DNA of 64,000 nucleotides from Chiloscyllium plagiosum (GCF_004010195.1 NC_057718.1:44180949-44244948), one strand, 5' to 3'; shown: positions 759-53,464, counted from the stretch's first letter. Translations and numbers: made by a program. The notes: generated by a model not told the origin, from the letters alone.

Positions 759-935
759 GTTACATACAAGTGCAGAGTAGCTGCTTGGAATGCTTATAGA
801 TAGGACATTAGTGACGTCTGCAGAGCTACCACTGTAAAAGTTGTGCCTCAGAGTATGAATCTGCCTGACGGAAGGACAGTAGACAACAGAAATGATATGA
901 TCTTGCTAAATTAGAATACTCCTGCACAATCAATG
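759..935 (+). pseudogene. Usherin-like exon remnant (about human exon 53), 5' part cut off by a LINE
   Basis: From 762: TYKCRVAAWNAYR*DISDVCRATTVKVVPQSMNLPDGRTVDNRNDMILLN*NTPAQS versus recalled human TYEYRISAWNSYGRGLSKAVRARTKEDVPQGVSPPTWTKIDNLEDTIVLNWRKPIQSNG. TAG at 801 and 912, 1-nt loss near 933, donor reads ATAAAT instead of GT. Confidence 0.85.
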
Positions 936-1021
936 ATAAATAAAGTGACACATTAAATAAAGCATTTTTTAATAAGAATATATCCTGCACCAAAACCATA
1001 TGAATACTAATAAATTCTGAG

Positions 1022-1186
1022 TCAAAGAGTGTGATGCTGGAAAAGCACAGCTGGTCAGGCAACATCCGAGGAGCAGGAGAATCGACATTTCGGGCATAAA
1101 TCCTTCTCTTGCTCCTCAGATGCTGTGCTTTTCCAGCACCACACTCGGACTCTGATCTACAACACCTGCAGTCATCACTTTCTCCC
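1022..1186. mobile_element. Short inverted (head-to-head) Penelope-like terminal fragment
   Basis: GCTGGAAAAGCACAGC...GAGGAGCAGGAGAA and its reverse complement within the element; same family as the 62680-62816 terminus. Flanked by aataaattctgag / aataagttctgag, a likely target-site duplication. Confidence 0.75.
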
Positions 1187-1891
1187 AATAAGTTCTGAGC
1201 ACTGTTTAAACTAATTTACTGTCGAATACAATTGCGAAGTAAAGTCAATAAAATAGGTATTGCAGTACTTCTTGTTGAAATTCCAAAACAAAAATATGCA
1301 CAGTTTTTATTAATATACTCAACACTGGCCAGATTTTTGTCATGTTTTCAGAGGTGCATTTCAGTCTATGAATGACCATCTTTGGCTTTCTTTCGGGAAA
1401 TCTGATTTTCTGCTGTATTCCCAATCTAGTGCCAATTTTCTTTAGCCCTTTTTGAAGGTCAGGAAAAACAAGTATGCAAAACAAACCTGGTTCCCCCTGA
1501 AGTTGGGTTCACTGTTTTGAATCAGGGATGAAAATTAGTTTTCGTACTGTACACTATTTTCATATGATGGTACAGGGTTTCGGAAGCTCGTTAAAAACAT
1601 ACCAGATTTGAGAATTTATGAGAATAATTCAAGGCCTCTTGAGTAGTTCAGAACATTCTAAAATGTAAATATATAGTGTTTTCACACCTTCAAATGTCAC
1701 TATTACATGCCTGTAAAATTACCTTTAAATTGAGGAAAAAAAATCACTTGAAGGATTAGTTTATTGGCTCAGAGAAAGGACATTATAGAAGCAGAAATGG
1801 GTGGAGGACATAGGAAAACTACAGCAATTATGCTTGATAACTTTAATTTATGTGAACATTAAATTAATCAAATTAGCAAAGGTAATCTAAG

Positions 1892-2580
1892 TGAGAAGGG
1901 CAATTAAAATGGGCGGTAACTAGGAGGTTCAGTCGGCCCCTGTGGGCCCAGCTGAGATGCACGTCGGGAGCATCTGATGCAGTAAACCTGTGTTAACTAG
2001 ACATGGTCTTCTTTACGTCTGGGAGATCAAACGGAAACTTAGGGAACGGTTCACCGAACATCTCAGCCAGGCCCGCAGGAGTTGACTGCATTCCGAGTCA
2101 CCCCCCATTTTAATTCCCCTTCCTATTCCCTTTCCAACATGACCATGCTTGGCCTCCTCCATTGCCACAACAAGCCAAACCACAAATTGGCTCATCTTCC
2201 ACCTTAGCAACCTACAGCCTGGAGGACTCAACATTGAGTTCTCCAACTTCAAATAACCTCTCCTCCCTTCCCCCAACTCCCTTCCTAGACCCTCCTCTTC
2301 CCTTCCACTCCTCCCATCTACCTTCCAGATTCATTCCTTCCATTGACCAACATGGTCATACCTCTATCTGTTTTCACCTATCCCCACTTCACCACCCTTC
2401 CCCTGCCACCCCCTTTATCTACAGCTTCCCCCAACACCCACTCCTCAGTCCTGAAGAAGGGTTACGCTCGAAATGTCAACTTCTCCATCTTCTGATGCTG
2501 CCTGGCTTGCTGTGTTCTTCCAGCGTCCTGCCTGTCGACTTTGGATTACAGCATCTGCAGGGTTTTTTTTTGTCTCAAAC
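1892..2580 (+). mobile_element. Penelope-like element 3' fragment (GIY-YIG C-half plus terminal repeat) with short 5' inversion
   Basis: LYVWEIKRKLRERFTEHL...HFNSPSYS...LIFHLSNLQPGGLNIEF (frames broken), then a pyrimidine-rich tail and CTGAAGA-AGGG...GAAA at 2451. 1892-1960 is an inverted copy of about 2060-2125. Confidence 0.8.
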
Positions 2581-2582
2581 CA

Positions 2583-4045
2583 ATCCCAGTGTCTGGATCA
2601 TTAATGAATTCTTGGAATCAGAAATAGTGCTGCAGGAGTGGAACACTGCCTGTTTAACAGCCTTATTCACTAAAGGAGGGAGAAAAAAAAACAGTGAATT
2701 ATAAGCTGTTTAGCTTAATGTCTCTCATTGGGAATTATTTGGTGATTATTATTAAGGATATCATAGCAGACAATTGAAAGACACATAATAAAATGAAGCA
2801 GACTATGGCTTCATATAGGAAAATTATACCTGACTAATTTATTGTAGTTCTTTGAAGAGGTAACAAGCAGGATAGATGAAGGGGAATCATTAGATGTAAT
2901 ATATTTGAATTTCAAAAAGGCATTAAATAAGGTATTCACATAAATCTATTTATAAATGCATAAGAACCCACCATTTTGGTGGTACTTTATTAGCATGGAT
3001 AGAGGATTAGCTAGCTAATAGAAAATAGAGTCGGGATAAAAAGGGCATTTTCAACATGGCACACTGTGACTAGCGCACACAGGGACCACAGGGGAGTGCC
3101 ACACAGCCCACAATTATTTATAGCATATATCAATAACTTGAATGATGGAAGGGAGTATACTATCACCAAGTTTGCAAATTACACAAAAATGGGTAGAAAG
3201 GCAAATTATGAAGATGACATAATAAGTCTCCAGAGAGATATTGACAGGGTATAGACAGGAGGAAATTGACAGATGGAATATAATTTGGAAAAATATGTGG
3301 TTTTGTATTCAGTCATGAAGAACAGGAGAGCTGAATAACATTTAGATCAGGAAAGACTGCAAAAAGATTCAGCAGACAGGGATTTATGATTCTCAAGCAT
3401 CAATCACAAAAAGCTGAACATGGATTATGGCAGGCAGAAGGAAGGCAAATGAACTGCTGGTCTTTATTTACAGGAAAATAGAGTATAAAAATAGGGGGGA
3501 GGTGTTAAGACTATGCAAGACTACTGCACACTCTGGAATACAATGAATAGTTTTGATCCTCTTATCTAAACAAAGATATTCTGATATTGGTTACAGTCCA
3601 GAGGCGATTCATTGGGTTGCTTCTGGGTATGAAAGGATTTTTCTTCAGAGGAAATGTTGAGTGGGCTGGGCTAGTTCTCATTGGAGTTCAGAAGAATGAA
3701 AAGAGACCTTACTGAAATAAGGTTTGTGATCCTGACCATAGAGATGGAGTGAGATTGATTCCCTCAAAGTAAGGGGTCACTCATTTAAGGCAAAGATGAA
3801 GAGGATTTATTTTCTCAGAAGGTAGGGAATCTGTGTAAATCTTTGCCAAAGAGGATTGTAGACATTGGGTCATTAAGTATTTTCAAGGCTAACATATACA
3901 GATTTAAAATCAGTAATGGAATCAAAGGCTATGGGGATTTGGCAAAAAAATTGAGCTGATGAATATCAGATCAGCTATGATCTTCTTGAAGGGCAGAATA
4001 GGTTCAGTAGGCCGAATGGTCTGTACCTGTTCCAACATCTTTTGA
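2583..4045 (+). mobile_element. Degenerate CR1-clade LINE (RT to 3' UTR)
   Basis: LFTKGGRKK, ITKFANYTKMG...LQRDIDR motifs and a CR1-type 3' UTR ending GGCCGAATGGTCTGTACCTG. Many stops. Confidence 0.85.
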
Positions 4046-4089
4046 AGTATAAAAATGAATGGTGCTTGTCACTGTCAGGTTGCTGTGAA

Positions 4090-4745
4090 TAAGCCAGAAA
4101 GATATTCTGCCCATAACACAAAATGAGTAATCTGCGATATGAATTTCAATGCCAATGTGATGCTAGGTATGCAGCCTGTACACCTGAAAGACTGGCAGCT
4201 CATATCAACACCATATTGTTTATGGCTGTTCACAACAAAGCATTTGCAAAACTCACAACTCAGTGTCCGACATTGGATGTGATTCCATGATGAAGAAACA
4301 TTTGCCAACGACTCTTGTGTGTGTAAGAATTATTCTGACAACCAATTTAGAATTGTCATTTGGTGCACTTGTGTGTATTGTTTGCTAACACATTAATACA
4401 CAGGACTATGTTCTTTACGGATAGAAAGAACATACACCTAAACTGCATTCAACAAAATAGGTGACAGTCATTCTCTGGTTCATTTATCAGGCGATGCCTT
4501 GACCAATTGATCAATCTTTCATTGTTTAAAATTTAAACAAAACTTAGTCGTTGACTTTCGGTTATCAATAACTGGGTGCATTCTCCATGAAAATGCCTGT
4601 ATCACTCAGAGTCCACTTCACACCCAATCAGCCGTTTCTTCTCATACAATATGAATGTCCTTCCCCTTTCCATTGATATTTCTTGTGAATGTTCTGATGA
4701 GTGCAAGGTAAAATTCTTCAATGAAATGTGTCTTTTCTCAGAATA
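4090..4745 (+). mobile_element. Degenerate Penelope-like element (second GIY-YIG family) 3' end
   Basis: KDILPITQ/MSNLRYEFQCQCDARYAACTPERLAAHI...KNYSDNQFRIV...INTQDYVLYG*KEH resembles a Penelope GIY-YIG C-terminus. Decayed CTGATGA-GTGCAAG motif at 4694. Confidence 0.65.
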
Positions 4746-6246
4746 AGCTCAAAAATTAATCTGTTATCAACAAACTGTGCAAGACATGTTAGAGGAATTA
4801 AATATAGGAAAGCTTTTTTATTGCTGCAAATGAGTAATTTACACAAGTCAAAATTGTACAGACTGAACTATGAAACCTGAACACAATTATTGCTTCATAC
4901 ATTCACCTCAGTATTTAAAAAAGTATTTGAATGATTCAAACCAGCTTCACCTAACTCAGTCTGCTTTCAGAGAGATTGGAGAAACATGGATGTCCGGTTC
5001 AGGTCACAAGAGGGTTCCATTGTCACCATTCTGGATTATGCTACTGTATGAGTAGATATAGGGCAGCGTGAGGCAACTCCCACAGCACAATATCTACGTG
5101 CACAATAGTATAAATGGTAAGATGCTCAGACACTCAGACCACTTTTGGGAATGACTGTTGCCACTGAACTTGCAAAGGTATTTACAGCAGACTTAAATTC
5201 ATAACATCGGTACTGGACATCATTAGGAAGGACCAGCTGAAGCATGCATCCTGCCCAAGAGCCAGGGGAGTGATTACTGCACAACACAGACACATCTATT
5301 TGTATTTCAGAATAGGCTGCAAAAAACCTGGAGCATGCACAGAATTCATTCTTCAGACTTTGCTGATATCATAAAATTGGAAGCAGCTAATGAGAAAACA
5401 GCTGCACTCTCCAATCCCAAGAAGTGCATCCTAATGAGGTAAGAACCCAGACCTGGAACTGGTGCATTATGACCATTTAAGCCACTGGTTTAAGTAAAAC
5501 AATCCTCTGAATAGTGCTGACCATGCCTGCTCTCATAAATTATGGCTGCAGTGACAAGAGGTTCTTTTGTGTAAATTACTAGTTTTCAACTTGCAAAAAA
5601 AAACTTTGCTAATGACTTGGCAGAAGCATAAATCATATGAGTGGGTACCACTGGTCTGACCTAAACACAATCAGTATTACTTGCTTAAAACGTGTGGAAG
5701 AGAACTTCTGACTTGTGGAAGACAAATTTGTAGCACATTCTGCAATATTGGCATTTCTGAATCATAACAGGTATTCAAGTACAAAACTCAAATCAAATTT
5801 GAAGGAAGAGCTGCAATTACTTTATTTGATTAGTGACATGGAAGGATCAATGATACTATTATTTGCTTAGCAACACCAAATAACTGACGATGGCATCATC
5901 AGAGGAGAAACAATAAATTTTCGAAATTATTATGACCTCATTTGTTCAGCTAGCATTCCAGCCTCACTATAAAATGGCACCAGGCCAGTTTGTTCATTAC
6001 TGGCCCCAGGATGCAAGAAATACCGTTATTTAGTCCAAAGCCTACAGAGTGGCTCTATTTTTAATGGAACTGTTTGCAGAAGAGTGAAAAGGTACTAAGA
6101 ATGACAAAAGCCAGAGATATATTTAAAAGCTGGCTGAGTAATTGCTAGCTCGGAGCAGATTTACAGGGTATTGCATGCTTTTAAGAGTTGCCGTTCAGCT
6201 GATTTGTTGCTTTTTTGCATCTAAACAGTATCTCTTATCGAACCAG

Positions 6247-6400
6247 GCATTATCATACATTACATTGTTCTACGCGATGGGACTGTTTGTTTTTGTGGGA
6301 CAGGCTTCTGTTTCACGGACACTGGTGGCATTCAGCCATACCAGGAATACACCTAGAACTGAGAGCTTGCACAATTGCTCAGTGTGCAGATAGCAGCAAG
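6247..6400 (+). pseudogene. Usherin-like exon remnant (about human exon 54)
   Basis: CAG acceptor. Reads GIIIHYIVLRDGTVCFCGTGFCFTDTGGIQPYQEYT, then a 1-nt deletion (about 6354), then ELRACTIAQCADSSK. Recalled human: GPIIYYILLRNGIERFRGTSLSFSDKEGIQPFQEYSYQLKACTVAGCATSSK. Donor is GA, not GT. Confidence 0.9.
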
Positions 6401-7870
6401 GAGGGTGTGCCACATGGAACACTTTGAAGGTCTGATAAACTGTGCATTACATCTGGTAATTTAATATATTATTATTTATCAATAATAATATAGTTCCTTC
6501 CTTTCTGCTATCTTAAAGCCACATACCAATTTACATTTCTTCCCTTCCCTGCATCATAAATATACTAACACTTCTTGCATTATTCCCTACACTATTTCAA
6601 TTTTTCCAGTTCAAAATTAGGAACACCTTAATTCACGCTCGGACTGGATTTTCACAGATACAGATGTGTTCAAAACTCACAGTCGGGATCCAATCCTGAG
6701 ATTCCAAGACCTATTCCAGCAATTTTCATTGGTGCATATGAAGTGTGTACTCCACTTCGTTAAAGGGCCAGGCATTTCCTAATCTTTCCTCATCCTTTCT
6801 CACCCCAACACCCACACAACCACTACTATTGCCTCCACAATTTTCTCCACCATTCATGGTTCTTGGGCCCTAGGATGAGTCTTGAACCAAATTGCATTCA
6901 ATAACATTTTCAAAGATATGCTCTAAAGATCAGGCCCACAACCTCAGCTATTCCCTATGCTCCCCCGTACTCTTCATGCTGAATTAATAGATGCTGAGGC
7001 TCCCCTGCCACTCCCATGACCCCCCAAATTCTCCATGCTAACCTGTTTCAAATTCACACCCCCTAAGACTTCATTTCATAATATTATTTGCTGACAACTA
7101 CCTTTAAACCCATTAATTGGTGCTTAAATGATAAGGCACAAATTGAACATGTGCCTTACTAGCAGCAAATAAACATGTCCACTGATGAAATTGTCAGGAA
7201 TTGACAGCTTAGCCATTCCATCTCACATTTGAAGATATTCCTCAATCTTATTGCCACCGAAGATAAATAACATTTCTCTTAATGCTGTCTTACATTTTGT
7301 TTCCTCTTCCCTTGATTTTGAAATAATGCTTATTTTCAAACAAAGAACTGAAACATCATATTTCTACCCTTCCACATCCAAGTTTTCTGATGAAATAAAC
7401 ATGATGTGCTTGTTGTGTAGAAGTCCACACTCTGAAATATTGACATGGACATTGGCTGTCAATAACAGAGACAGCAAACATAATTGCTCACACTACAAAT
7501 CACCACCACTCCCAAGCCTTCCATTCTCCATGTAACATCTCAATGTCAACTCATCCACTGACAGCTACTTCCCGTGGTCTTTCATATTCTCCATGTCAAT
7601 GAAATGCTAACTTCAAGTAGATGGTGGGCAAAGGGTGAGAAGTGAAGTCCTACTTTAGTTACGTTTGGGATAAAGTCCCAGTCAACTGAGGTGGGCCATC
7701 TAACCAGCCTGTGTCAGCATTGCTCACTTCTGTGGCCAGCTAGGATCTGTTTTCAGTATCAGCAGACTCGACTGTATCCCACACCTGCCTGCCCACTAAC
7801 TTTACCTTAAAAGGAGCATTGCGTATGACTGGGAAATTTAAACTGCGCTGGGCCTGCCAAATCAGGAAAT

Positions 7871-8201
7871 GTCATAGAACCCCTAGTGTGGAGACAGGCC
7901 CTTTGGCCCAACAAGTCCACACTGACCCTCTGAAGGGTAACCCACCAAGATGAATTCCCCTGCCCTATTATCCTATATTTACCCCTGACTAATGCACCTA
8001 ACCTGCACATCCTTGAACTCAATGGGCAATTTAGCATGCCAATGTACCTAACCTGCACATCTTTGGGTTGTGGGAGGGAACCAGAGCACCCGGAGGAAAC
8101 CCACACAGACACGTAGAGAATGTGCAAAGTTCACACAGACAGTTGCCTGAGGCTGGAATCGAACCTGAGTCCCTGGTGCTGTGAGGCAGCACTGTGTCGC
8201 C
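7871..8201 (-). mobile_element. HE1-type (V-SINE) SINE
   Basis: Reverse complement of the 17749-18072 element (V-domain GTGGGTTTCCTCCGGGTGCTC, CR1-like tail); head partly deleted. Confidence 0.9.
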
Positions 8202-8799
8202 TCTGACTCGAGTTATTCAGCTCAGTATCTAAAATCTGGACCTATGTCTTCTTGTGTGTCCTTGTGTGTTTTAAACCCAAGCTTGACAACACATCATCAT
8301 CAATTCTCAGTTTATCTCATTCAACTCCTCTGTTCTCTTCACCCTTTGCCTCTAAATTAGTATCTCAATTTGAAAGAAAGTCAGCCCACCTACAATTTCA
8401 AAATAAATATGCTGTCATGTGTGGAAATTGTAAATATGATCAAAAAATGTGTTTTGAAACAACAAAATAGAAGTTGTGTCTTATCAATGTAACATCAAAT
8501 GTGTTTCACAAACATAAAAGGTCATTAATCTGAAGTGTTAAACATCATTTTTCTCTCTCCAGATTCTGCCTGACATGCTGAGGATTTCCATCATCTTCTG
8601 TTTCTATTGTCTTTCAACTATTGACTTTTTGGATTCTCATATGACTTCTGCATGGCTGTTAATGAATATATCCAGGGAAATCATGAACATGACACTCATT
8701 CAGAATGTTTTGTATGAGTTCATGAGTTTATATTCTGGTACATTAACTGATGGTGCGTGATAATTGATAACTGCTGTCAAACTTCTTCTCACGTCATAG

Positions 8800-8998
8800 G
8801 TGGGTGTAGCAACTTTCTAAGGAGTCCCTGAAAGTTTCTACTCTCCAACAGTGGTTGTCTTCAATGCAACTGCTATACAGCTTTTGATGAGATCTCCAGC
8901 TAAGTTTAAAGGTGTAATACATAAGAGCCACATCCACCAGACTGAAACATGACTGATCTATACAGACACAACTAATAGGATGAAGTTTATTGCAGTAA
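8800..8998 (+). pseudogene. Usherin-like exon remnant (about human exon 55)
   Basis: AG/GT bounded, 199 nt: VGVATF*GVPESFYSPTVVVFNATAIQLLMRSPAKFKGVIHKSHIHQTET*LIYTDTTNRMKFIAV versus human VVAATTQGVPESILPP...GLIHTDTTDRRQHTVT. TAA at 8818, TGA at 8950, FN3 Trp lost. Confidence 0.88.
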
Positions 8999-11900
8999 GT
9001 ATAGAATGTCAGGATGTTTAATGGCTAACAATCCAAACTATCTTTTGAATTCTTAGGTTTAAAGTCTAGCAATCCAATTGTATGGAGTAGTGGCATACTA
9101 TAGGATTGAGTAAGTGTTTGTGAGAGTGGAAGAAGCATGTATGTACTTACTTTTTCTGATTCATACTTTCCATTGAAGTATCTCCAGGCTTATGCAGATA
9201 AATTAAAGGGCTATTTATTGGGATAAGTTTGCTTTTTCCCATCCTGCATACAAGCACACAAACTCATACCTGAACGCACATTTAACAGTAATAGATATTA
9301 ATGTGCCAGAAACTTCAGTTCGAAAAAATTTGCTTAAAGCTTTAGCCTGTTTGGATTGCTCCCTTTCTGATCAAAATTTACTCTGTTTACTACAACTTTG
9401 TTATACTAGGCTTCTAAGCAAACTGCTAAACTCAGTTCCCCATGTGAATTTTGTAATTTTCGAAACTACAAACGCGCAATGCACTTAATTAAGATATTTG
9501 ATCAAATTTCCAGGAACTTTTTAAAGGAATATAAAAGGGTGAAAACGTTAATTTTGATTTATTAGCTGCATTTAAATAAATTTGAATGGTAACCTTGTAA
9601 TGTTAGTTTATTAAAATGCAGAAAACCCACTATATCCCTTAAGGGTTACAAACAGGGAGATAAAAGTGCAATCTGTTTGAAGTATGACCTCCGGTAATTG
9701 CCATACTTTACAGACACTTACTTATTTTCCATAAACATCCCATATATTTTGCTGCTGTCAACCACAAGTGAATTACGTGCACATATTTTTCACATGCAGA
9801 TAGGTAAAATGTAACTTTTTGCCTTTTGAAGGTTTTAAACAGTTGTCGTAAAATAGTGGATTGTTTCTTTAATCTTTTTCATCATTGTAATATGAGCATC
9901 ATTTGAAATATTGGTATAAATGGCTTGTAATCCAGTAAATCAATGTACATTTCCTCTGGCATGATTTCTCTTTTTTTTTGGCTGCTGTGAAGTGTTTTCT
10001 GACAGCTTATTTTTAATTACATCTGAGCCTAAGAAACCTGATCTTATAAAGTGTTTCAGGGGGAAAGGGCAGAGTGAGCAGACATGCCATGTGAAATCCA
10101 GAAGTCATTCATAATTCTCTTAAGACAAAAAAGCATTAAGTAATTGAGGACAGGAAGTTCTCACTTAATTATTTAGGGGTGTTATCAATGCTTTAAGTAA
10201 ACTGAAGCATTTTCTACTGTCTCAACGAGCATAATACCTTTGGGACATGGACAGCAGCCATCATCTTCTCATGTTCTTTAATGCAAATAGCAAATGGCAG
10301 CTTGTCAATATCGGACCTTTTTATATCATTTATTACTGAACACTTCCAGTATCCTGTAAAAAACAATTTAGATGACAGTTATGGCATTGTTTCACTTTGT
10401 GTTATCAGTATTTAACAAATGGGCCAACTAATACTCCAAAGGAGAATTGCAATCATCATTTGTTTTTGATGCTGCTGGAAGAAAGGCTGATACTGCCCCC
10501 TTCAGTTCAACTCCCTTCACAAATATTAAAAGGGGACATCACAATCCTGAAAACTGTGGTTCATTTAAGCTTTTTTAAATGCATTGCTTTTGCAAAAATA
10601 TAACATGATATTGAATTACCTTCTCATCATGCATTACCTTCTCATCATGCATTCTGACAAAAAAAAATGCTTGATGTAGCTTTGGATTCTTTTTCCATTA
10701 ATGGAAGAATAAAAATATTGCCGTGAAGCTGATAACCTTGCATTTTCAAAACAGTCAAAATGCATTTTCTTGTAATTTTGTAGGTGCATGCAAAATCACC
10801 AGAAACCATAAAATATTAACTTTGTTCAATAAAATAAAAGCACAACAGATTTCAGTAGACAATAAACTTTGGATATGTTTCCCATTGTTCTCTGTTTTCT
10901 GATCAGAATGTATGTCTCTGAGGATGAAACTTGTGCCCAACACAGAGAGATTGTATTTCTGGTTGTCCAGTCTCTTTGAAGGTGTTCATTCAGATCTGGG
11001 GACCTGTTGCAACAAGAGAAATTGCACTGAGCTTCTGAAAATAAGTTTTGTTTTCTCTACAAAATTTTTGCAGCAAATATCTAACAACAAGAGGTCCTTA
11101 ACATACGACTCCAACAATCAGGATAAGCTATTGCTACCTGTGGGAAATACAATAAAGGCCACAGTTCCCTCATATTACCTTAGGTGTTCAAGTACATTTT
11201 AGGCAGCCCAACAGGAAATAGGAGCAAGTGAGTGTACTTGTAGAGCATACCCCATACTAAGGTTTGGTTCATGGGTGTCTCAAACTATCAAAATAATTGT
11301 GAGAAGCAGGTAGAAAATTTGCTCAGTATTTTCAGTAGCATTTGTTAAATGTATTGCATGGCTATGTTACAAACGCCTCTAAAAATAATGACCTACTGCT
11401 GCTTCAAAGCTGTTTTGCTCAACCTTGTGAAATGTGGAGTCTCTTTCTCCTGCATGGGATATTGCACTGAAGGGTAGAACCAAAATCTTCCGAATCAAAT
11501 TACCACAATTTTTAGAATGGAAGGGGACCTTGAATAGTGACTACTGTGCACATGGATATGGATTGACCTCCATAAGGGAATATAAGTGTTGTACTAGTGA
11601 GGATGAAGTGAGGCATGTGATCTGGTCTCCTGAAGAGATGTAAATTCTATCTTAACAATTACTCCCAGGTTTGAAAGGGTACCCTGTATAACTGCCATAT
11701 TGGTGAACAGTCAAATTTACAAAGGTATGCAGAAGAAGATACTTGCATATGTCTTCATTTGCTCTGAGATGCCCTTCCACTAATCCGACAACACTGATAG
11801 GATGAACACAAGAAGTTGTTACCAGGCGCCATTTAATGTTACTATTGCAGTTCCATTTTGGGCCTGATGAGACTTATTGGGACCAATTTTAACTCTGAGT

Positions 11901-16092: not shown

Positions 16093-16214
16093 CACCCTGC
16101 TAAAGGGATTTTTTTTTCTCTCTCTCTCACACACACACCCCACTAAAGGGATAGTCTCTTTCTCTCTCTCTCTCTCACACACACACACCCACCCTGCTAA
16201 AAGAATATTCTCTC

Positions 16215-16247
<33 letters not shown>

Positions 16248-16299
16248 TTCATCCTGTCCTGACATCAAACACACACATTCATCCTGTCCTGACATCAAA
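16093..16299. repeat. Compound (CT)n(CA)n microsatellite in three larger units, plus a 30-nt tandem duplication
   Basis: Three units of ACCC(T/C)(G/A)CTAAA..(CT)n(CA)n, then ACACACATTCATCCTGTCCTGACATCAAA twice. Confidence 0.9.
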
Positions 16300-16319
16300 T
16301 GAGGCCCCAAGTTTATATT

Positions 16320-19688: not shown

Positions 19689-22618
19689 GGGGTTGGCTTG
19701 CTATTGACCAGGGAGTCATCAGCCCCTTTGTTATCTTTGTCATCATAAGAGATCATAGTCCAGTTTGTTTGATGTTTCTTTGATGCTTTGGGTGTTACAA
19801 TCCATCCATCTCTCTCCCGCACGCTCGCTCTCTCTCTCTCTCTCTTTGTACAGCCACATCTGCAGCGATTTTTGACTATATCAGACTCTGTATCAAAATA
19901 AAACACATTTTGGAATTCAAATGTTTACAGTACTTTGGAATTCTGACCCATTGTCTTAACAACAGCTGCATCAATTTTTGCACTTATCTCTGATGTTAGT
20001 AAGAAGGATTTTACAAGCTCAACAGGGCTGAATTGTTTTGTTATTTCCAGTTGTGGTTTCCAATAATTAACAGTCTCAGCCCAGTGCCACTGGGATTTTA
20101 CCAACTACAAGTGGGTCTGTTGCCCTGCTGTGTGTCCAATAGGTCAACCTGTGCAGGCAACTTGTCAGCTTGGGGATCCATGGATCAAAGGCAATCAGTC
20201 CACGATTGACAGACTGAATATGGGGCAGGGATATGTACTCTGAGAACCACCTCCTGCTATTGCTTTCAATCCATGTCCTCTCTCCCCATGACCCTAAACT
20301 CAGAAACACCCCTCACACAAATCACATCTGACCCCCTTGTCTTCTCCTGGTACTCTCCTGGCAGCGGTCACAGGCTCTTCTGAGGTGCTGTTGTGTGTGC
20401 AAGAGATGTTGACCTTGAATGGAAGGCACCTCTCACTGGGTGGGCCATACACTCCCAGGATCTTAATGCCAGGTTGAATGCTATCAGTGGCCTCACCAAT
20501 GCCTGAACAGCATTAGATCTGGCCGGTCTTCCATGGGACAGGCAGTGCGGGTCTCTTTCCTGCTTTCTGGTCAGTTACCACCACAGAAAGGTTCCCCAAG
20601 AAGTCTATTCCAAAGGATTTACTTAGATTTTGTTTTCCAACTGTTAAGTTTTACTCTTTAGAAATTTTAATTCTCTTAAAATTTATTTTTGGAGTTTTCA
20701 AACAGGCAACAAACAGAAATCTAAGGAATGAGTAGGAAGAGTTTATGGGCTTGAACAAAGTTACAAAAATAGAGAGGATCTGTCAACGGAGGAATCTCAA
20801 ATCACAAAGGGCAGAGATAAAGCAATGTGGACACAGAGTCAATGCTGATCAGTGAGGATGAAAAGGAATAGAAATCAGGTTTGGTACAGGATAGGATACA
20901 AGCAGTAGAGTTTTTGATGAGCTGAAACAATGAAGTTTGGAAATTGGGCGGTCAGTAAAGAAAGATTTGCGGTAATCTAGTCTGAAGATGACCAAATCAT
21001 GCTCAAAAATTTCAAGAGCAGATTGATTAATGTGGGGAAGGGGGCAGTAAACAATAAGTGGGTGCAACTCTCTTTCTCTTAACTGGCCAAAATTCAAAGT
21101 TGGAAACTTAGTCTAGGGATGAACATAAGATCACTTTCTTTGCACCAATATCCCATTGTTGTAATGAAAAAATAATCAAAGTTTTCATCAACTGGGAATA
21201 AAAGACTTAATTGTTTTCACTTTGCTATGGAAAAGTCCATTCTCTCTCATTCTTTTACTGTGAAAGCAACAAAATCTAATTAATCTAATTATGGAATTTG
21301 TATTGAGTGTCTTAAAATGATGTTTTATACCACAGAATAGAAAAACTCCTCAACATCATTAGCAAACAAAAGCAGTCATCTCGATAGCTCAGTATTCAAC
21401 GTACTTGTACAAATATGAAACAAAATCTGAACAACTGCAACACTTAATAGAATTACAAAAAAGCAACATTTCATTCCTTGTTAGTTATTTCTCTTTTTTA
21501 TTGTAGTGACTAATTTTTCATTTTAAAATTAAGCAACACTGTTTTATAGTCAGCACATTATAAACAGTCTGATAAATTTGTGTCATGGTTCTGACTCTGA
21601 TTGAAACGATTAGTGAAAATTAAACAAATCTGAGGCCTGAAACAAATTGGATAGAAAAACAGAACATTGATTAAGCATCATTATCACTCTGTAAATCAAT
21701 GGATATTGCAAGACTGCAATGATTGGAACTTAAAGAAAGTTCAACATATCAGTTTCAGGCTCTATAAAGTAACCTGCATACATGAATGCTGAAAGCAGCT
21801 TTAATTTACTTTGAATGTGTTAAAAGCAAAATAAAACATTTGTAGATTTTTATTTATCTATTTAATTTTTTGCATCAAAGGAGGAAATGTATCTGCAGGC
21901 AATACTATCCCTGCTTTTTGTCCCTTTGTGAATTTTTCCAATTACCAAATATTTTGATCTGCTTTCTATTTATAAATTCACTGCTAAATTTCATCAGCTT
22001 TGCATTCAGTGGGTAGTCTCAGCTTGTTTCTGGAATTAATTTAATATTATGGTCTTGCACAAATCATAAATAAAGTGATTTTCTTTCTGCTTGTCTGCTT
22101 TGGATTTGGACTTTACTTTCAGGAGTGAAATGTCACACTGATAGAACCATCATGCAATCTATCCCCATACAACTTCCTGTTAATTAACTACAAGTAGGTA
22201 ATTGCTGTTGATTGATATAATTTCGTGACATAGTTGAGGTTCCTGTTCTGAACAGATGACCTGCCAAGAAATTCGACAGCTGCCCAAAATGGGCAAGGAA
22301 ATGTAATGCAACTATTTAAGCTGCTGACACACTCCATCATTAAATCTAAAGTAAGTCAGGCTCAAATGGCCTCTTTTAAGTATTACTGGTGAGATGTGGA
22401 CTCTAAACATGAACCCTGCACCATTTACGAAAGGGCGGTAAGCTTGATAGGCCCATGCAGATTGGCAGAAGGGTGCGATCAAGGAGTTGGCAAGAGTGCT
22501 GGGGACCTCAGATGGGACAGCAACTGATGATTTGTGCTCTGAACTTTGGAAGAGCAATCCAACTTCTTCTTGTGCTCAGAAATTCTACATTTCCTGAACA
22601 GCTTTTAAACATGTGTCA

Positions 22619-23985
22619 TGCTGAGATATTTGTATTATCAATAGTCACAGGTGAGGGGCCGGAAGACTGGAGGTTGGCAAACGTGGTGCCACTGTTTAAG
22701 AAGGGCAGTAAAGACAAGCCAGGGAACTATAGACCGTTGAGCCTGACCACAGTGGTGGGCAAGTTGTTGGAGGGAATCCTGAGGGACAGGATGTACATGT
22801 ATTTGGAAAGGCAAGGACTGATTAGGGATAGTCAACATGGCTTTGTGCATGGGAAATCATGTCTCACAAACTTGATTGAGTTTTTTGAAGAAGTAACAAA
22901 GAAGTTTGATGAGGGCAGAGCAGTAGATGTGATTTATATGGACTTCAGTAAGGCGTTTGACAAGGTTCCCCATGGGAGACTGATTAACAAGGTTAGATCT
23001 CATGGAATACAGGGAGAACTAGCCATTTGGATACAGAACTGGCTCAAAGGTAGAAGANNNNNNNNNNNNNNNNNNNNNNNNNNNNNNNNNNNNNNNNNNN
23101 NNNNNNNNNNNNNNNNNNNNNNNNNNNNNNNNNNNNNNNNNNNNNNNNNNNNNNNNNNNNNNNNNNNNNNNNNNNNNNNNNNNNNNNNNNNNNNNNNNNN
23201 NNNNNNNNNNNNNNNNNNNNNNNNNNNNNNNNNNNNNNNNNNNNNNNNNNNNNNNNNNNNNNNNNNNNNNNNNNNNNNNNNNNNNNNNNNNNNNNNNNNN
23301 NNNNNNNNNNNNNNNNNNNNNNNNNNNNNNNNNNNNNNNNNNNNNNNNNNNNNNNNNNNNNNNNNNNNNNNNNNNNNNNNNNNNNNNNNNNNNNNNNNNN
23401 NNNNNNNNNNNNNNNNNNNNNNNNNNNNNNNNNNNNNNNNNNNNNNNNNNNNNNNNNNNNNNNNNNNNNNNNNNNNNNNNNNNNNNNNNNNNNNNNNNNN
23501 NNNNNNNNNNNNNNNNNNNNNNNNNNNNNNNNNNNNNNNNNNNNNNNNNNNNNNNNNNNNNNNNNNNNNNNNNNNNNNNNNNNNNNNNNNNNNNNNNNNN
23601 NNNNNNNNNNNNNNNNNNNNNNNNNNNNNNNNNNNGGGGCATGGATAGGATAAATAGACAAAGTCTTTTCCCTGGGGTCGGGGAGTCCAGAACTAGAGGG
23701 CATATGTTTAGGGTGAGAGGGGAAAGACATAAAAGAGACCTAAGGGGCAACTTTTTCACATAGAGAGTGGTGCGTGTATGGAATGAGCTGCCAGAGGATG
23801 TGTTGGAGGCTGATACAATTGCAACATTTAAGAGGAATTTGGATGGGTATATGAATAGAAAGGGTTTGTAGGGATATGGGCTGGGTGCTGGCAGGTGGGA
23901 CTAGATTGGGTTGGGATATCTGGTCGGCATGGACAGGTTGGACTGAAGGGTCTGTTTCCAGGCTGTAGATCTCTCTGACTCTATG
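22619..23985 (+). mobile_element. CR1-clade (HER1-like) LINE, 5'-truncated, spanning an assembly gap
   Basis: Open RT N-half (EDWRLANVVPLFKKG...DFSKAFDKVPH); after the gap, ORF2 C-terminus and a 3' tail ending CTCTGACTCTATG. Same subfamily as 1-758. Confidence 0.95.
23058..23635. other. Assembly gap (578 N)
   Basis: Run of n. Confidence 1.
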
Positions 23986-35878: not shown

Positions 35879-35986
35879 GTCTTCAGCCGCACACTGACCA
35901 CAGTGTCACAGTGATTGTGTGCACTTCTGCTGGAAGCAGCACAAGTCCATTTGCAACAGACCAGACTCTGCAAGCTTCTCCTGAAG
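35879..35986 (+). pseudogene. Usherin-like exon (about human exon 56), frame and splice sites intact
   Basis: cag|GT...GAAG|gtatga, 108 nt: LQPHTDHSVTVIVCTSAGSSTSPFATDQTLQASPEG versus human LQPYTNYSFTLTACTSAGCTSSEPFLGQTLQAAPEG. Confidence 0.92.
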
Positions 35987-36529
35987 GTATGAGAAATCAA
36001 TTGTATGAGTAAAATCATTCTTACGAGCAGTTTTCAAGTCTAGAACACAGTGCTACATAAACTCATTTTGCAGTTTTCATCCTGGTTCAGTATGTCAAAA
36101 TAAGGTCAAAACATTCCCCATATGGTATCTATGACATAACCATGTCAGTCTGACAAGCCTGGGTTTTGGTTGACTGAAAGGTGGCATGTACACGCTTTTT
36201 TTAAAGACATGCATTCACCTCCAACGTGCACAGTGGGAGATAGGATCAAGAAGAAACTAGGTAAGTAGAACAATTTAACCTTCATTTTACAGGGAGGAAC
36301 AGCTAAAAAGATAATTTAGGTTAGTTAGGAAGAAAAGTAAAGCAAAAGCTAAAAATGATAGGCCATATGGAGAAAAGAGTGAGCAACCACAAAAAATTGG
36401 GAATGTGAAGGACATTGTGAACAGAAATAAGGAGTATTTTAACATAAGAGTGATTCCAGCAAGAAAGCAAATTAATTTTCTGTCCATCAATGACAGAAGG
36501 ATGACTTTGACAATTTTAACCACTGGGCT

Positions 36530-37430: not shown

Positions 37431-38724
37431 ATAAACATTTTACAGGAAGGATTTTTTTTTTAAATTATCCTTGTGGGGCTACAGAAGCACTTTCTATGCC
37501 CCAAGTTATGGTAAATGACTGCAAATGCTGAAACTCAGTAGGTCTGGAAGCATTCTGTGGAGACATAAAAAGAGAAAATGTTTAGAATTTGATATGGTTT
37601 AGTTCACTGTCACTTCACTTCCAGGTCTGCCTACCTTGAAGAAGTTCTCACCTTCTTTCCAATGGGTTTTCTATTTTAATCATTCAGTGTGTTTATTCTC
37701 ATCTGCCTCTTATGTCAGATAAAATATTTGCTGAAACTTACTTTCAGAGTACAGCTTCTTCCTCTGTAAGCTGTTTGGTTCTAGCTTATCCCACAAGGAT
37801 TCCAGCTGAAGTTCCATCCTTATGTCTCTAACCCAACCAAGGTTACAGTTATCTCCAAAACATACATGCTCCTCAGACAGCTGCTCTCATATATCCTGGG
37901 GTCCACATTTAGTGCCATGTGCCACCACATGCATAAGCTTGACCTCTCTTTTCATCAGCACCCAGTCCCCTGTTCCATTTCATTCTTAGTCTCATCTGAT
38001 GCTTTCATAATTTTTTTTCTCTTCTTTTCAGCTGTTAAGGAATGGAGTCATGCCATGCTTCTCTCTCCATGGATACTGCCCGACTTGCTGAATTCTCCAT
38101 GTTTACTTCTTTACCTTTAGCTTCACAAAGGAATGTTTCTGACTAGCCTCAAGGAATTTTTATTCCTTCCTATAGGTGGTTAAACTGCCATAATTTGGCA
38201 AAAGAGCCATAGCAGCTTAATTCCTTCACCTAAGGTTAAATAGCACAGGAATAGGTTGTGAATGGTATAAATTCACAAGGCCATCTTTTGTCTTGTGAAA
38301 GGACCTCAGTTAGTCAGGTTTTCCATCAAAATCCACCCAAAGTTTTTTTTCAACAATTTTCAGTAACAATTGATTTACCTTTGTATATTTTAGTTCTGTA
38401 GAATTAGAATTAGAACAAGAAAACATATTTGATTTTTGAGTAATATTCTTAATCGACCATTAAAGCTCAATCAAAATGTGTGAATTTAAGAAGCAATATT
38501 TCAGATTGGCCAGTGGACAGGATTTCTCCAGCCTCAAAGTCAATCTACAGGTTAATTTTTAGAGATCATAAATCATGAAAAATTTCAACATGAGCAAAAT
38601 GGTCCTTTTCTGCACAAACGTAATGCAAATACAGGTTTCAGAGATTCAGTCATAAAATACTTAATGTACTGTGAACAAAATAATGCTTCCTCAGCAAACA
38701 AACTTGTCTTTATTTTTCTTGTAG

Positions 38725-38908
38725 GTATTTGGCCAAACCCTTATCATATTACTGTAAGCCCCAACATTGTGGAACTCTATTGGACAGTGCCAATAAAGCC
38801 AAATGGGTTCACCATTCAATACTATTTACTCCACAATGATACAGTCATCTTCACTGGTGGCAGTGTATGTCTCAACCATATAGATACTGGCTTTCAGCCC
38901 AACACAAG
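38725..38908 (+). pseudogene. Usherin-like exon (about human exon 57), frame and splice sites intact
   Basis: Pyrimidine tract + tag| ... AG|gtaaaa, 184 nt: GIWPNPYHITVSPNIVELYWTVPIKPNGFTIQYYLLHNDTVIFTGGSVCLNHIDTGFQPNTR versus human GVWVTPRHIIINSTTVELYWSLPEKPNGLVSQYQLSRNGNLLFLGGSEEQNFTDKNLEPNSR. Confidence 0.93.
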
Positions 38909-39497
38909 GTAAAACTTTTGCAGATCTTTAACAAGCTTTTAAGCAGTGATTATTGGTGATATCCAATCTGTGAGAGTCTGAAAGAATCTTTTGACTTGCT
39001 CTTAAAAAGCCAAACAGTGGTGATACTTAATCATTAAAATTAAAAAAAATCTTTAGGAGAGCTCTTAAAAGACAAATATTGGTGATATTCAATCACCTAC
39101 TGTCTTTTGTGACTCCTCTTGTTTATTGATGTGCTTTAATGATTGTGCTCTATGTCAGCTTCTCTTTTATCTCCTTTATCTGAGTGGGAATTAAAAATAC
39201 ATTGCAAGTTGCTGAGATATACATGAGCTAAACATTAATATAATTGCTAGAGTACCATTTCTACATAGATTACAATCTCATTTTAAATATTATAGGCACA
39301 GGAATGATATTTTTATCATACTGTTTGTATTGTGTGCATCAAATTACAAAATAAATGTGTTAATGACTCTTGTAAAATACTCACAAAGGAATTTAATGTT
39401 AACACATCAATGTGCTGAAAATAGCATGCAGAAGAATACCAATCCCATTCTCATCTATTTTTAAATTAAAAGTCCAGAACTTGCAGCCAGACATGTT

Positions 39498-42296: not shown

Positions 42297-42453
42297 CGAT
42301 TCAAGATCCTTACTCAAAACATTAGCTCTGCTTACTCCCCACAGATGTTGCCAGATCTGCTGAGTTTTATCAAAAGTTTCTTTTTATGTTATAAAATGAC
42401 TTAAGTGATGTTACAATGGAACTTTGCTAATCCTTTGATTTATTTTTCTCTAG

Positions 42454-42609
42454 ATAAGTGTATAGATTGCAGACCAACACAAGAGGAGGGAGTGGTAGAA
42501 GTGAAATTTATGTTGTTCAAACAGCAGCATCAATGCCAGAGAAAATTCTAGTTCCATATAATGTCACAGTAGCATCCATCTTCATTGTTCACAGCCTGGA
42601 CTCCACCTG
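42454..42609 (+). pseudogene. Usherin-like exon remnant (about human exon 58)
   Basis: tag|A TAA (stop at 42455, where human has Y), then VYRLQTNTRGGSGRSEIYVVQTAASMPEKILVPYNVTVA, a frameshift near 42575, then PSSLFTAWTPP. Recalled human: YTYKLEVKTGGGSSASDDYIVQTPMSTPEEIYPPYNITVIGPYSIFVAWIPPG. Confidence 0.9.
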
Positions 42610-48855: not shown

Positions 48856-49012
48856 TTGTTTTCAATATCAGAACATCTCACTTTTACAATGTTACTTTAA
48901 ATCTTGGGACTGCCCAAGCAATTATTTATCCCACTGGTCATAATCATTCCTTATTAGTGAAGAACTGAATCTATTTACAATGAAGAGATAAGAATTCAGA
49001 CATCTCAGCCAG
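48856..49012 (+). pseudogene. Usherin-like exon remnant (about human exon 59)
   Basis: ttttag| ... CCAG|gtaagg, 157 nt: VFNIRTSHFYNVTLNLGTAQAIIYPTGHNHSLLVKN / LNLFTM / EIRIQTSQPG, with two 1-nt deletions. Recalled human: ...YNVLLNDGSVTPLAFSVGHHQSTLLENLTPFTQYEIRIQACQNG. Confidence 0.8.
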
Positions 49013-49097
49013 GTAAGGAACAATTTGTTATCAGTTCCCATTGCTATCTAAGAGCTAATTTAATAACCTTGTCTCTGTGTCTTTTAAAGTAATAAAG

Positions 49098-49405: not shown

Positions 49406-50639
49406 AAGAATGTTGAGAATGGGATATTGAGAAACAACCTTTCTGTTAAATCCTTACTGGTTAGATTGCAGTCAACTTAAAATAACATACATCTTCTTGA
49501 ATGTGCCAATGTATTTTGCTTTAAAACATTTAACCCATCATGGATTTAAATCAGTTACCACAATCAGACTATAATAGCCATCAAATTGAAATGACAATCA
49601 AATTTTTGTAAATGTTATCCCTTGTCCCTTCCAATCCAAATGCTTCTAATGGTGAAGCAGTTTCTAGTACTTGAGGAATATAAGTTGAATAGCCTTCAAT
49701 CTTTGCTTTTTACTTGATGTTTCCCTCTCACAGACTAAATGACTGGACAAATTCACTTCAGAGTTGATGGGAAAATTCTTGTCCAATTATTTTGGAACAG
49801 TGAGTTAGAGCACTCTTATGCAGTGTCATTGAGCCACAATCAACTGCCTTTGTCATCACAGAAACATTCTTATTTAGAATTTGTTCTGTTGTTCCATTAA
49901 CCCTATCACCTATACTTCCCTATAACAGTACGTTCATTCTACCAACTGAAGTGAATGTTTCAGTGGCACCATAACTGCTGATCACTCTCAATCTTCTAAT
50001 GAATCCAGGAAATAGACATGGTTAAGAGCAATAGTCCCAAGTCCAGCATCTTTCAGCAGAGTAAGGATCCAATCGATGATCGAATCCTAACAGGGTTTAA
50101 TCAAATTTGAAACATTAACTCTGATTCTCTCTCTCCGTTGATGATAATTGATATGCTGAGTTTTTTCAGCAATTTCAGTCTTTCTTTAAGATGCAGGCTC
50201 ATTTGACATCATTGATGGTCCATGGTACACATTATTTAGTTCATGAAAACTAAAAATTTGGACATTCTCATTTTGTGTAATAAAGCTAATAATTATAATG
50301 GAATCAAAGAACATAAATTTAAATACTGAATCTTGACAGTCATCTATGTATGTATGCATACAATGAAGTCTTTAGCAAGATCACAAAAAGGATCGCCTTA
50401 TTAATATAGATCTGTGCTAGTCAGGTCACCATAAATAGTTCACCATTTGCAAAGAGTCACAAAATAACAGGAGTGCCTAAAGTAAGGAAAGGAAGGTAAT
50501 TGATGGCTTCAAGGAATGTGAATGTGTAAGTAGTGACCAGCAATCCAGTAGCAGTTTTTAAGAAGCAACCAAGAAGGCCACTTCAACACTTCAATAAAAA
50601 ACATTACTGTCTTCAGATCTGTTTCCCTTTAGCTAAGTG

Positions 50640-51000
50640 ATCATAAGAACATTGGAAAGGAAAAGGCCATTCACCCTTGAGCCTGTGACCTCACTTCATA
50701 TGTCTGCCTTTAGCCCAAATCCCTGGATATCTTTGCTTAACAAAAAAAAACTATTTATCTCAGATTTAAAATTAATAACTGGTCGAGCATCCACAGAGTC
50801 AAAGAGCTTCCTAACATCGCTCCTGAATTAACTGACCCTAATTCTCAGACTATGCTTCCTAGTTCTGGAATATCCGATGAGTGGAAATAATTTATCTTTA
50901 CTTGCCCTGTCCTTTCCTGTTAATATCTTGAAGACTTCAATCAGATCACCCCTTAATCTTCTAAATTCTAGAGAAAACAAGCCTGATTAGTATGTTTTGT
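50640..51000 (-). mobile_element. Degenerate CR1 3' fragment
   Basis: Minus strand FSLEFRRLRGDLIEVFKILTG; TCATAAGAACA tail pattern. Confidence 0.75.
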
Positions 51001-53301
51001 CATAATGAGACAGTATCTTTAATAGACACTGATATAGTGTGTATTATAGATAATGGTGAACTTGGAGAGAACCTGTAAAATTGCTCCAGTAACCCACACA
51101 TGCCATCACTACTCCTTTGCCCAATTGAGTATTGGGTGCTAATGGAATAGTATGTAATTATATAGTAACTGCACAGTCTTTGTTGTGTTTACTTGTGGCC
51201 AATGCAAACTCTCATTATTAATGGCTGAAGCAGATCATCCCAGTATCTAAGTGGCAACCACACAAATAGCCTTCACCCTCAATTGAAGATGGCACAGATG
51301 ACAGGGGCACAAATAAAATACAGTGGCTGTAACCTCAAAGCAGGCACAGAATGCATTTTCCAGAATAACTGTGCTTTCCATCTTTGACATCAGGATTTGA
51401 GGAATCACTTTGTTCAAGCTTGTAAGATTTGATAAATTCAAAATTATGTAGGACAACCACGGGAATGAAGTTCAGCCCAGTAAAAGAGAAAAAGGAAATG
51501 ATACTATGCCTTTCTCATGCAAAGAGTTATCAATAAATAAAATAGACCTCTGAACATAGTAGTGAAGGTAAAAATGCTGAAATCATGTAAGCAACAATTG
51601 ATTGCTGTATTGGGAAGAATTTGAGTGTCTTTTTGAATGGATGAACACAAATGGGACAAATAGCCTTAACTGTGACAGAGTGAATTGTCCTTTGGGTCAT
51701 GTAGGCCATGACATTGTGTTTTCTCACTCGGATGGCCACAGGGATACTATTAGTTATTCTTGGACTTTGAGTATCTCAACAATGCAGTGACATTGGTCAG
51801 CTGCCTCATACAGTTGTTATTATTCAGCGAGAGAGAGGAGATGCCTGTAACTTGTTTGATATTCTATATAGAGGCCAAATGCTTGATATAACAGATGCCT
51901 CTGTGCTGAATAGAATCAGAAGCTTAAAAACTAAGGGAATGGGATGACCTTGATTGGCACTTGCAGTTCTACCTCTGTGGCAAAAGTTGTCTGCATTCTT
52001 TGATATGGTGTAACTCTAAAACTGTCTGAGTATTGGGATAGAGTCTGTGGAGATACTTCATCTCAGTCTAGGCAAGGTATGTATGTCAAAGCATGCACAT
52101 AATACTGATATAATAATTGTGGGCACAAGAACTTTGGAATATGGCAGAAACTGATCACCTTGCTGTGCCTTATTTGCACTTTTTCACTTGCCACTTTTCA
52201 AACATTATTCCGTGAAAACAACTTATTGTAAAATTAGTGGATGCCCATAAACATTTGTGGTGAAATGAGTATCTCTCTAAAAATGGTACTTCTTTAAATC
52301 CCCGTCACAGGCTAATCCATCCTTCTATGCTATTCTTCTCATTCTATACCTGTCAGTGACTATCATCTAAATCAAATAATTTTCATCCTACTGTTTCTCT
52401 CCATGCCCTACCTTAACCCGATCCCACATTCCACAACTCTCCCCCAGGACATTTTTGTTCCTCTCCTGGCAGTTCCATGCCATATTCCCTTCCCTCCTTC
52501 CCATGTTATCTCCCTATCTCATGTTGTCCCCTTTTGTCTCTTATCCTTATGCTGTATCCCATTCCCATAGTTGCCCTCATCTTGTGCTGTACCTACGTTT
52601 CCTTGCACCAATTATTATCATCAATAGCTCAGTAAACATACCAGGGTGTGGCAAGGGATGGAGGCAAGAATATGAGGCCAGGGAATGTGTGGACTCACTG
52701 CCAATAACTAGACTTGGAGTGTGTAGGGGTGAGGGGAGATCAATGAGGCTAGAGAGCAGCAGTTGCAGGGACCAGGGGCCTAAAAGCAAGGAACATGCAT
52801 GAGATGCCAAATCAAACCATCAAGCAAACAGAAAATCTGGACAGGCAGAATCCGTGTCTTATTGCTTTACATTATCATTATCTTAAAAAGAAGCTGTGGC
52901 CTTTCAATAGATTCTGATACTGTATTACAAGCAAAATGTTTGTTCTTAATGGCCACGTTGAATGGGCAGACTTAATGCACAAGGTACTGCGACCCAAAAT
53001 TTGTAAAATTGACCATTGACTGTTAATACTTCTTTTAAGTGAACTTAGTATTCATTCCAAAGCTTTTGCACATTCTGTGTGAGGCCTGTATCAACTGGCA
53101 GTCATAAAATAATAAGATGCACTTAGAAGTACATTACAATGGAACAATTTTCTGGCATCTACTGGAGATTAGTGTCAGTAGGATCATTGTAGTAGCTCAG
53201 AATTTGATCTAGACACATGATAAAAATATACAAGCATCTGAGGGTTGTTTATATTTTGGTTCTTAGATTTTAGTTGATTTAGATATGATATTTTGTCATA
53301 A

Positions 53302-53464
53302 GTGGTTGTGGAGCTGGTGAACGAACATACATAAAGACGGTGGAAGTATCAAGTCAATATCAACAGCCTCCTGTCCTAACAACAGTTAGTTTAGCAGTTG
53401 TGAAAGTCAAATGGCTTCTGCCTGAAAAGCTTAATGGAATTATCACAAATTAAACTATTTACAG
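53302..53464 (+). pseudogene. Usherin-like exon remnant (about human exon 60)
   Basis: 163 nt: GGCGAGERTYIKTVEVSSQYQQPPVLTTVSLAVVKVKWLLPEKLNGIITN*TIYR|gtaaaa versus human GSCGVSSRMFVKTPEAAPMDLNSPVLKALGSACIEIKWMPPEKPNGIIINYFIYR. Acceptor is AA instead of AG; TAA at 53451. Confidence 0.9.

Follow-up and report, generated by a model that had tools for sequence, protein, structure and literature searches.

Eight decayed usherin (USH2A) exons in Chiloscyllium plagiosum: probable remains of a unitary pseudogene with an intact 3′ end

What has become of usherin in a shark whose exons for it are largely disabled? USH2A is the gene most commonly mutated in human Usher syndrome type 2 and recessive retinitis pigmentosa, its loss causes deaf-blindness in people, and usherin is intact in every full-length vertebrate record among those listed here, from lamprey to mammals. 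The question is raised by a stretch of 64,000 nucleotides from the carpet shark Chiloscyllium plagiosum (C9:44180949–44244948 of a 3.56-Gb assembly in 101,977 contigs; hereafter the window), in which an original prediction made from the sequence alone had placed eight FN3 exons of a dead, intron-containing usherin copy. Here we argue, with a probability of about 0.9, that the window holds eight consecutive exons of the shark's single usherin gene, and that this gene is an old unitary pseudogene. Unitary pseudogenes are a well-described kind; usherin is an unexpected gene to find among them.

The window is vertebrate DNA of ~40% G+C, dense in retroelement debris. With five shark usherins as tblastn queries it gave eight colinear matches on the + strand, in protein order, which together cover residues 3487–3921 of the 5221-residue usherin of the basking shark Cetorhinus, for which the piece coordinates are given (Table 1). 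At E values of 2e-7 to 2e-21 per piece, this eight-piece match is far above chance. Exon limits were taken from the DNA around each piece and from a frameshift-aware alignment of protein to DNA. Each piece is 54–72% identical to its own successive stretch of usherin, as against 23–37% to the other repeats of the same protein, and no other FN3 protein gave a better match. A query with exon 5 (38709–38909) against 1.84 billion representatives returned 207 proteins at E ≤ 0.001; five of the ten looked up by name are called usherin or usherin-like, hits so named being from basking shark, white shark, lamprey, pupfish, crinoid and Ciona, and the remaining ones looked up are unnamed or hypothetical FN3 proteins that cluster with usherins. 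Single window exons had no match to Pfam fn3 at E ≤ 0.01, being too short, and a crude FN3 motif scan of the window picked up exon 5 alone.

In a maximum-likelihood protein tree the window sequence nests within the galeomorph sharks (support 95/99), and the order of parts between 43.54 and 44.40 Mb on C9 is that of an usherin gene: laminin N-terminal, laminin-EGF, Cys-rich and FN3 exons come first, then the large exon, then the membrane span and the DTQL end. Exon-wise similarity, gene order and tree placement thus support the assignment of the window pieces to the USH2A orthologue. They would be the counterparts of human USH2A exons ~53–60, which encode FN3 repeats of the long isoform; one indirect check fits this numbering, in that human p.Y3565, which sits in exon 54 (PMC7453661), corresponds by hand mapping through the marmoset offset to one of the two tyrosines in the EY(T/S)YQL motif of window exon 2.

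Table 1. Usherin exons, adjoining retroelement sequence and public usherin models. Positions are counted from the first letter of the window.
Feature	Position or length	Strand	tblastn piece (vs Cetorhinus usherin)	State or evidence
3′ part of the 4379-base insertion splitting exon 1	1–758	−		LINE-type reverse-transcriptase open reading frames
Exon 1, downstream part	759–935	+	759–929	TGG to TAG at 801 and 912; one base lost near 932–934; AT for GT donor at 936–937
Exon 2	6247–6400	+	6246–6412	AG acceptor intact; one-base deletion at ~6354 in a Tyr codon, giving an immediate TAG; GA at 6401–6402
Exon 3	8800–8998	+	8770–9006	Stops at 8818 (Q to TAA) and 8950 (R to TGA)
Exon 4	35879–35986	+	35881–35991	Frame open; AG/GT intact; invariant Cys to Ser
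Exon 5	38725–38908	+	38724–38909	Frame open; AG/GT intact; 66% identity to Cetorhinus usherin; single-copy in genome
Exon 6	42454–42608	+	42449–42608	TAA at 42455 in first full codon; two-base deletion at ~42575; one base lost at donor junction
Exon 7	48856–49012	+	48858–48962	One-base deletions at ~48957 and ~48980; phase misfits exon 8 (one further base lost)
Exon 8	53303–53464	+	53301–53465	TAA at 53451 in place of an invariant Tyr; GT donor intact
Intronic LINE fragment	53477–54687	+		Reverse-transcriptase open reading frames; starts 13 bases behind exon 8
Public model, usherin-like [Chiloscyllium plagiosum]	356 residues			Five of seven exons map at 100% in the tail of the locus; other three partly overlapping matches at 91–99%
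Public model, usherin [Stegostoma tigrinum]	219 residues			94–98% identity range over last 195 residues
Public model, Chiloscyllium punctatum	195 residues			94–98% identity range over last 195 residues

Six of the eight exons are disabled, as the original prediction had it, the exceptions being exons 4 and 5, and its outer limits of 759 and 53,464 coincide to the base with the exon limits derived here. All six of the in-frame stops it had listed are stop codons inside exons, at codons for which the orthologs have, in order, W, W, Q, R, H/Y and Y. Its tally, which had about five frameshifting indels and three broken splice dinucleotides, is borne out in nearly every item: we count four frameshifts within exons, three exon ends short of one base (exon 1, exon 6 and the junction of exons 7 and 8) and two expected donor places without GT. 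At 912 the stop takes the place of an FN3 tryptophan that is invariant in 11 orthologs; in exon 2 the next GT lies 4 bases beyond the expected donor place; and in exon 3 an invariant FN3 tryptophan has become methionine, with the Pro-Asn-Gly (PNG) and tyrosine positions altered too. A seventh aligned stop, TAG at 8797, was discounted, being the acceptor AG of exon 3. The predicted insertion of a long interspersed nuclear element (LINE) was also found, as a reverse-transcriptase-bearing insertion of 4379 bases that splits exon 1: the first 20 bases of the exon (…DTNLDPY) lie outside the window behind an AG acceptor, 4.4 kb upstream at C9:44177308–44177327. The exon that follows exon 8 is likewise outside, at C9:44250182. 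The protein collections hold no entry for the window exons, which annotation had been expected to miss. Recoding or readthrough was ruled out, as three kinds of stop co-occur with frameshifts, and a retrocopy was ruled out by the presence of introns.

Is this a dead duplicate, or the gene itself? The genome was queried with a cloudy catshark piece (residues 2456–4115) and with teleost pieces that represent the N- and C-terminal regions. All the best usherin-like matches lie in gene order, with introns, on C9 at 43,540,019–44,394,599 (~855 kb), and the search disclosed no second copy of exon 5. Matches on other contigs, at 27–63% identity, are to other laminin-EGF and FN3 genes, the higher values being short laminin-EGF matches of the N-terminal query. 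In this search, which used a stricter first look, there is one usherin locus and no intact paralogue was found. The decay that the original prediction described is borne out, but the usherin copy it described is the organism's only usherin locus and not an extra one, and the last exons of that locus are intact (see below).

Beyond the window, we examined 200 kb around and downstream of it and 5.9 kb over four upstream exon regions; most N-terminal exons are known only as genome-search matches. Damage to the locus extends from the laminin domain to about residue 4811. Downstream of the window, all eight exons for residues 3917–4887 are damaged: their 965 aligned codons contain 11 stops (one probably intronic) and 10 frameshifts, the large exon by itself having two stops, five frameshifts and several deletions. 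Three of the five upstream exons examined are broken: the laminin N-terminal exon by a stop, a laminin-EGF exon by a Cys-to-TGA change together with the loss of several cysteines, and the exon for residues 2629–2722 by a frameshift and a stop (residues 2686–2722). Two, for residues 681–745 and 3210–3266, are open. Across the 1379 aligned codons of the window and the decayed exons downstream of it there are 17 stops (one probably intronic) and 14 internal frameshifts, with further lesions upstream. With stops, frameshifts and lost splice sites in the ectodomain exons examined, as well as a retroelement insertion and exchanges of invariant residues, the assembled locus is shown to be one from which long usherin cannot be made, and on the same genomic reading the short and long isoforms known from mammals are both gone. 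The window exons would be without function, intron-like filler of any transcript that still crosses them.

As a separate observation, one laminin-EGF exon (C9:43593358–43593552) is open and 94% identical (61/65) to basking shark usherin, in far better condition than the exons next to it; chance or an overlapping conserved element could account for this.

The substitutions in the window exons tell of relaxed constraint. Over 414 columns the window is 62.6–66.4% identical to the usherins of five sharks, which are 80–97% identical among themselves, and it is 55% identical to that of elephant fish. Among columns invariant in 11 usherins, whose sources range from sharks to marmoset and zebrafish, 28 of 116 (24%) are altered in the window, including FN3 core tryptophans, the Pro-Asn-Gly turn, tyrosines and a cysteine; when each real ortholog was left out in turn, it showed 0–15 changes in 116–131 invariant columns (0–11.5%). 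The end branch of the window in the maximum-likelihood tree is 0.40 changes per site, as against 0.011–0.095 in the five sharks. A relative for which contigs were available (organism B) differs from the window in exon 1 at six listed sites (3.4%); with the codons read by hand, five of these differences are non-synonymous, and one of the five replacements restores the ancestral Gly beside the first stop; this is the pattern predicted by neutral drift. By the altered invariant columns, the branch of 0.40 and the mostly non-synonymous exon 1 differences, the window exons have evolved without purifying selection.

Because this protein branch exceeds that of every other shark at least fourfold, we infer that the decay is old, on the order of 10^8 years. 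By rough hand estimates, a branch of 0.40 is about that of a lineage fully neutral since it split from lamniform and carcharhiniform sharks, if constrained usherin evolves at ~1/5 of the neutral rate, and a neutral divergence of ~0.1 per site would suit the count of six stops in 414 codons. The sequence divergence suggests inactivation early on the carpet-shark lineage, to which the short usherin model of zebra shark, located on a 99-Mb contig, is a circumstantial pointer. The loss is probably older than the divergence of bamboo sharks from zebra shark, for these species too have short annotated models alone.

Outside the window, the 3′ end of the locus is in a different state from the exons described above. 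The last six exons (348 codons; C9:44372806–44395562) have no stops and no frameshifts, are 77–93% identical to basking shark, have canonical splice sites and end in frame at …TDTQL-TAA. In the last 195 residues, which comprise the membrane span and the PDZ-binding tail, none of 53 columns invariant in the 11 orthologs is changed, whereas the window has changes in 28 of 116 (Fisher p = 1e-5), and the zero holds for all three carpet-shark sequences; of the chondrichthyan-invariant columns 4–6 of 126 are changed, which falls inside the 0.8–5.3% found for sharks with intact usherin. Were lesions as frequent here as in the decayed part (30 in 1379 codons), one would expect 7.6 of them over 348 codons and 4.2 over 195, and by hand arithmetic the probability of finding none is ~0.0005 and ~0.014, respectively. 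The tree of the tail has a stem of 0.066 and tips of 0.005–0.035, ordinary for a shark, and groups the sequence with two carpet-shark models (100/99). Three short public models, retrieved by a word search with the cytoplasmic exon, cover this part of the gene (Table 1). The tail also holds a 24-residue exon with AG/GT flanks (C9:44386120–44386191) that is identical at 24 of 24 residues to the extra exon of the 219-residue zebra shark model and is found in white shark and smooth-hound usherins as well. Presumably it corresponds to the exon of mammalian USH2A that is alternatively spliced and enriched in the ear.

We lean slightly towards the view that the last four or five exons survive as a minigene with a predicted protein of ~195–219 residues. 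Its product would consist of a short outer stub, the membrane span and a cytoplasmic tail ending in the PDZ-binding DTQL. In other vertebrates it is through the C-terminal tail that usherin is linked to whirlin and the USH2 complex. In mouse and zebrafish this tail binds usherin to whirlin and ADGRV1 (PMC9944904). The 5′ limit of constraint, near the exon for residues 5017–5044, appears soft, because the 161 residues upstream of the last 195 are intermediate. A fuller scenario, in which carpet sharks (bamboo sharks and zebra shark, and perhaps all of the order) lost the giant ectodomain ~10^8 years ago and kept a mini-usherin of ~200 residues, 24-residue exon included, under purifying selection, is offered tentatively; we put it a little short of an even chance.

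The strongest competitor to a surviving minigene holds that the whole locus is dead, 3′ end included, with the last exons intact by chance or through some non-coding use (e.g. as enhancers that serve a gene nearby), the short models being mere artefacts of homology-based prediction. Those models do start at the first methionine behind the last lesion or at a methionine common to all chondrichthyan usherins, as automatic pipelines would give, and the FN3 part of the 356-residue model looks relaxed, with 8 of 55 invariant columns changed. A tail free of lesions would nevertheless be improbable under that account, as the probabilities calculated above indicate, and so would the untouched invariant residues; moreover, frame, splice sites and DTQL end are all retained in three species, the 24-residue exon is unchanged relative to zebra shark, and the branch length of the tail is ordinary. 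We regard death of the entire locus as doubtful, though far from negligible.

Far less probable is that the assembly lacks, or has collapsed, a functional long usherin, and that the window shows a dead duplicate. A fragmented assembly and a search whose stricter first look can miss matches would both help to hide such a copy. Against this, the tested exons are single-copy, the best matches form one series with introns as in the ancestral locus, an intact copy 80–90% identical to the queries would outscore the decayed one, and two related species, one of them with its locus on the 99-Mb contig, likewise have short usherin models alone in public annotation. An overlooked intact gene is, in our judgement, very improbable.

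The lesions were checked against Logan contigs of four runs over window positions 700–9100, which is contig evidence and not raw reads; the runs come from two studies of the same organism (X1 and X5) and from two relatives (organisms B and C). The X5 contig, from an independent study, has no differences and no gaps over 6133–6644, so that the exon 2 deletion and the GA donor are both present in it, and X5 covers exon 1 at a depth of 8.8 with no listed difference. A contig of X1, which may be the assembly's own data source, differs over 8167–9100 at 8727 and 9033 alone and has the stops at 8818 and 8950 exactly. Organism B carries the locus at ~2.6% divergence (192/7422 bases) and organism C at 3.4% (200/5851; both hand sums). 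Two controls speak for the quality of the assembly, namely a 5734-codon open frame rich in FN3 repeats that belongs to another gene (C7:43017919–43048199) and the clean last six exons of usherin itself. The disabling lesions are real and not assembly artefacts, and the original argument against sequencing error stands insofar as contigs from two studies agree with the lesions they cover. An intact gene peppered with errors would account for the several one-base deletions, a typical fault of long-read assembly, but not for six stops that arose by substitution, for the replacement of 24% of invariant residues, for the agreement between studies and the clean controls within the same assembly, or for the same locus in diverged relatives; we give it hardly any credence. 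Equally slight is the chance that the pieces belong to a different FN3-repeat gene, an idea that could draw on the failure of single exons to reach Pfam fn3 thresholds and on the cross-matching of FN3 repeats but that is at odds with the fit of each piece to its own stretch of usherin and with the remaining usherin parts standing in order on the same contig through the DTQL end.

Several points weigh against the picture as we have drawn it. A 317-base X1 contig over exon 1 has two differences. The stricter first look and the number of contigs leave room for an unassembled intact copy. Exons 4 and 5 and those for residues 681–745 and 3210–3266 are still open, so that decay is patchy, though this is to be expected by chance in short exons. 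The 161 residues upstream of the last 195 carry no lesion, and their eight changes in 55 invariant columns give p = 0.17 against the dead part. Finally, the start of the minigene at a conserved methionine, and its promoter, are assumed.

Retroelements border the exons at both ends of the series. In the insertion that splits exon 1, of which 3289 of 4379 bases read as N in the sequence examined, Pfam RVT_1 was matched at window 1–255 (−; E 1.2e-10) and 256–549 (−; E 6.9e-7); in the intronic fragment behind exon 8 it was matched at 53939–54406 (E 4.2e-10), with no family for 53477–53938. The only run of N in the window, at 23058–23635, lies within a region (22413–23900) that has reverse-transcriptase-like open reading frames (ORFs) on both sides of the run, and because of these flanks it is probably an assembly gap within a LINE. 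Towards the end of the window a 166-codon ORF (62016–62516, +) encodes a Cys-rich motif followed by YIRETGR…ERF.EH; it matched no Pfam family at E ≤ 0.01, and we take it to resemble the GIY-YIG endonuclease end of Penelope-like elements. A (CA)n-type microsatellite at ~16100–16300 is visible as HTHTHT in ORF translations.

If the gene has been dead for as long as its divergence suggests, the carpet shark would be a natural knockout: a wild lineage with working eyes and ears that has been very long without long usherin. Usherin acts with ADGRV1 and whirlin in photoreceptors at the periciliary region and in hair cells at the ankle links (PMC9944904). This raises the questions of what replaces usherin in the ankle-link and periciliary complexes, and of whether ADGRV1, whirlin and PDZD7 have changed alongside. 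A family scan found four Calx-beta exon matches without an internal stop over 215 kb at C2:47536568–47751745, which we would guess to be ADGRV1, apparently intact. Were the mini-usherin to be confirmed, it would be a natural experiment in which the intracellular tail functions independently of the ectodomain, and photoreceptors and hair cells could dispense with the usherin fibres thought to build the ankle links and the periciliary complex. If the tail is expressed, its scaffold role would be separable from the adhesion role of the ectodomain, which bears on the design of mini-gene and exon-skipping therapies. Annotation conceals losses of this kind: the public record for this species' locus is a usherin-like protein of 356 residues alone.

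We found no publication on usherin loss in sharks or carpet sharks in the literature listings searched, and the main text of the catshark sensory-genome paper makes no mention of USH2A, usherin, ADGRV1 or whirlin. Among 120 of 320 records listed, full-length chondrichthyan usherins are those of basking shark, white shark, catshark, smooth-hound, horn shark and elephant fish, and none is from a carpet shark or a ray, which is weak evidence.

Measured against the intact usherins of Cetorhinus, Carcharodon, Scyliorhinus, Mustelus, Heterodontus and Callorhinchus (4760–6054 residues), the locus described here has the same exon order, phases and domain succession, and its tail exons are 81–90% identical to those of intact shark and elephant fish usherins. 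It differs from them in that its ectodomain exons are disabled, 24% of invariant residues are changed and the frame is kept in the last 195–356 residues only; the short carpet-shark models cover this tail alone, and none includes the window exons. In Sinocyclocheilus cavefish, whose senses are regressed, one study reports only two amino acid changes in Ush2a and not a pseudogene (PMC4698820). Human USH2A disease alleles comprise the same kinds of lesion (nonsense, frameshift and splice) in the same exons, and p.Y3565*, in exon 54, coincides by hand mapping with one of two tyrosines within the motif where window exon 2 has its one-base deletion (PMC7453661). Human alleles, like the mouse and zebrafish knockouts, are single recent lesions with pathology, whereas here dozens of lesions are fixed in a wild lineage that sees and hears.

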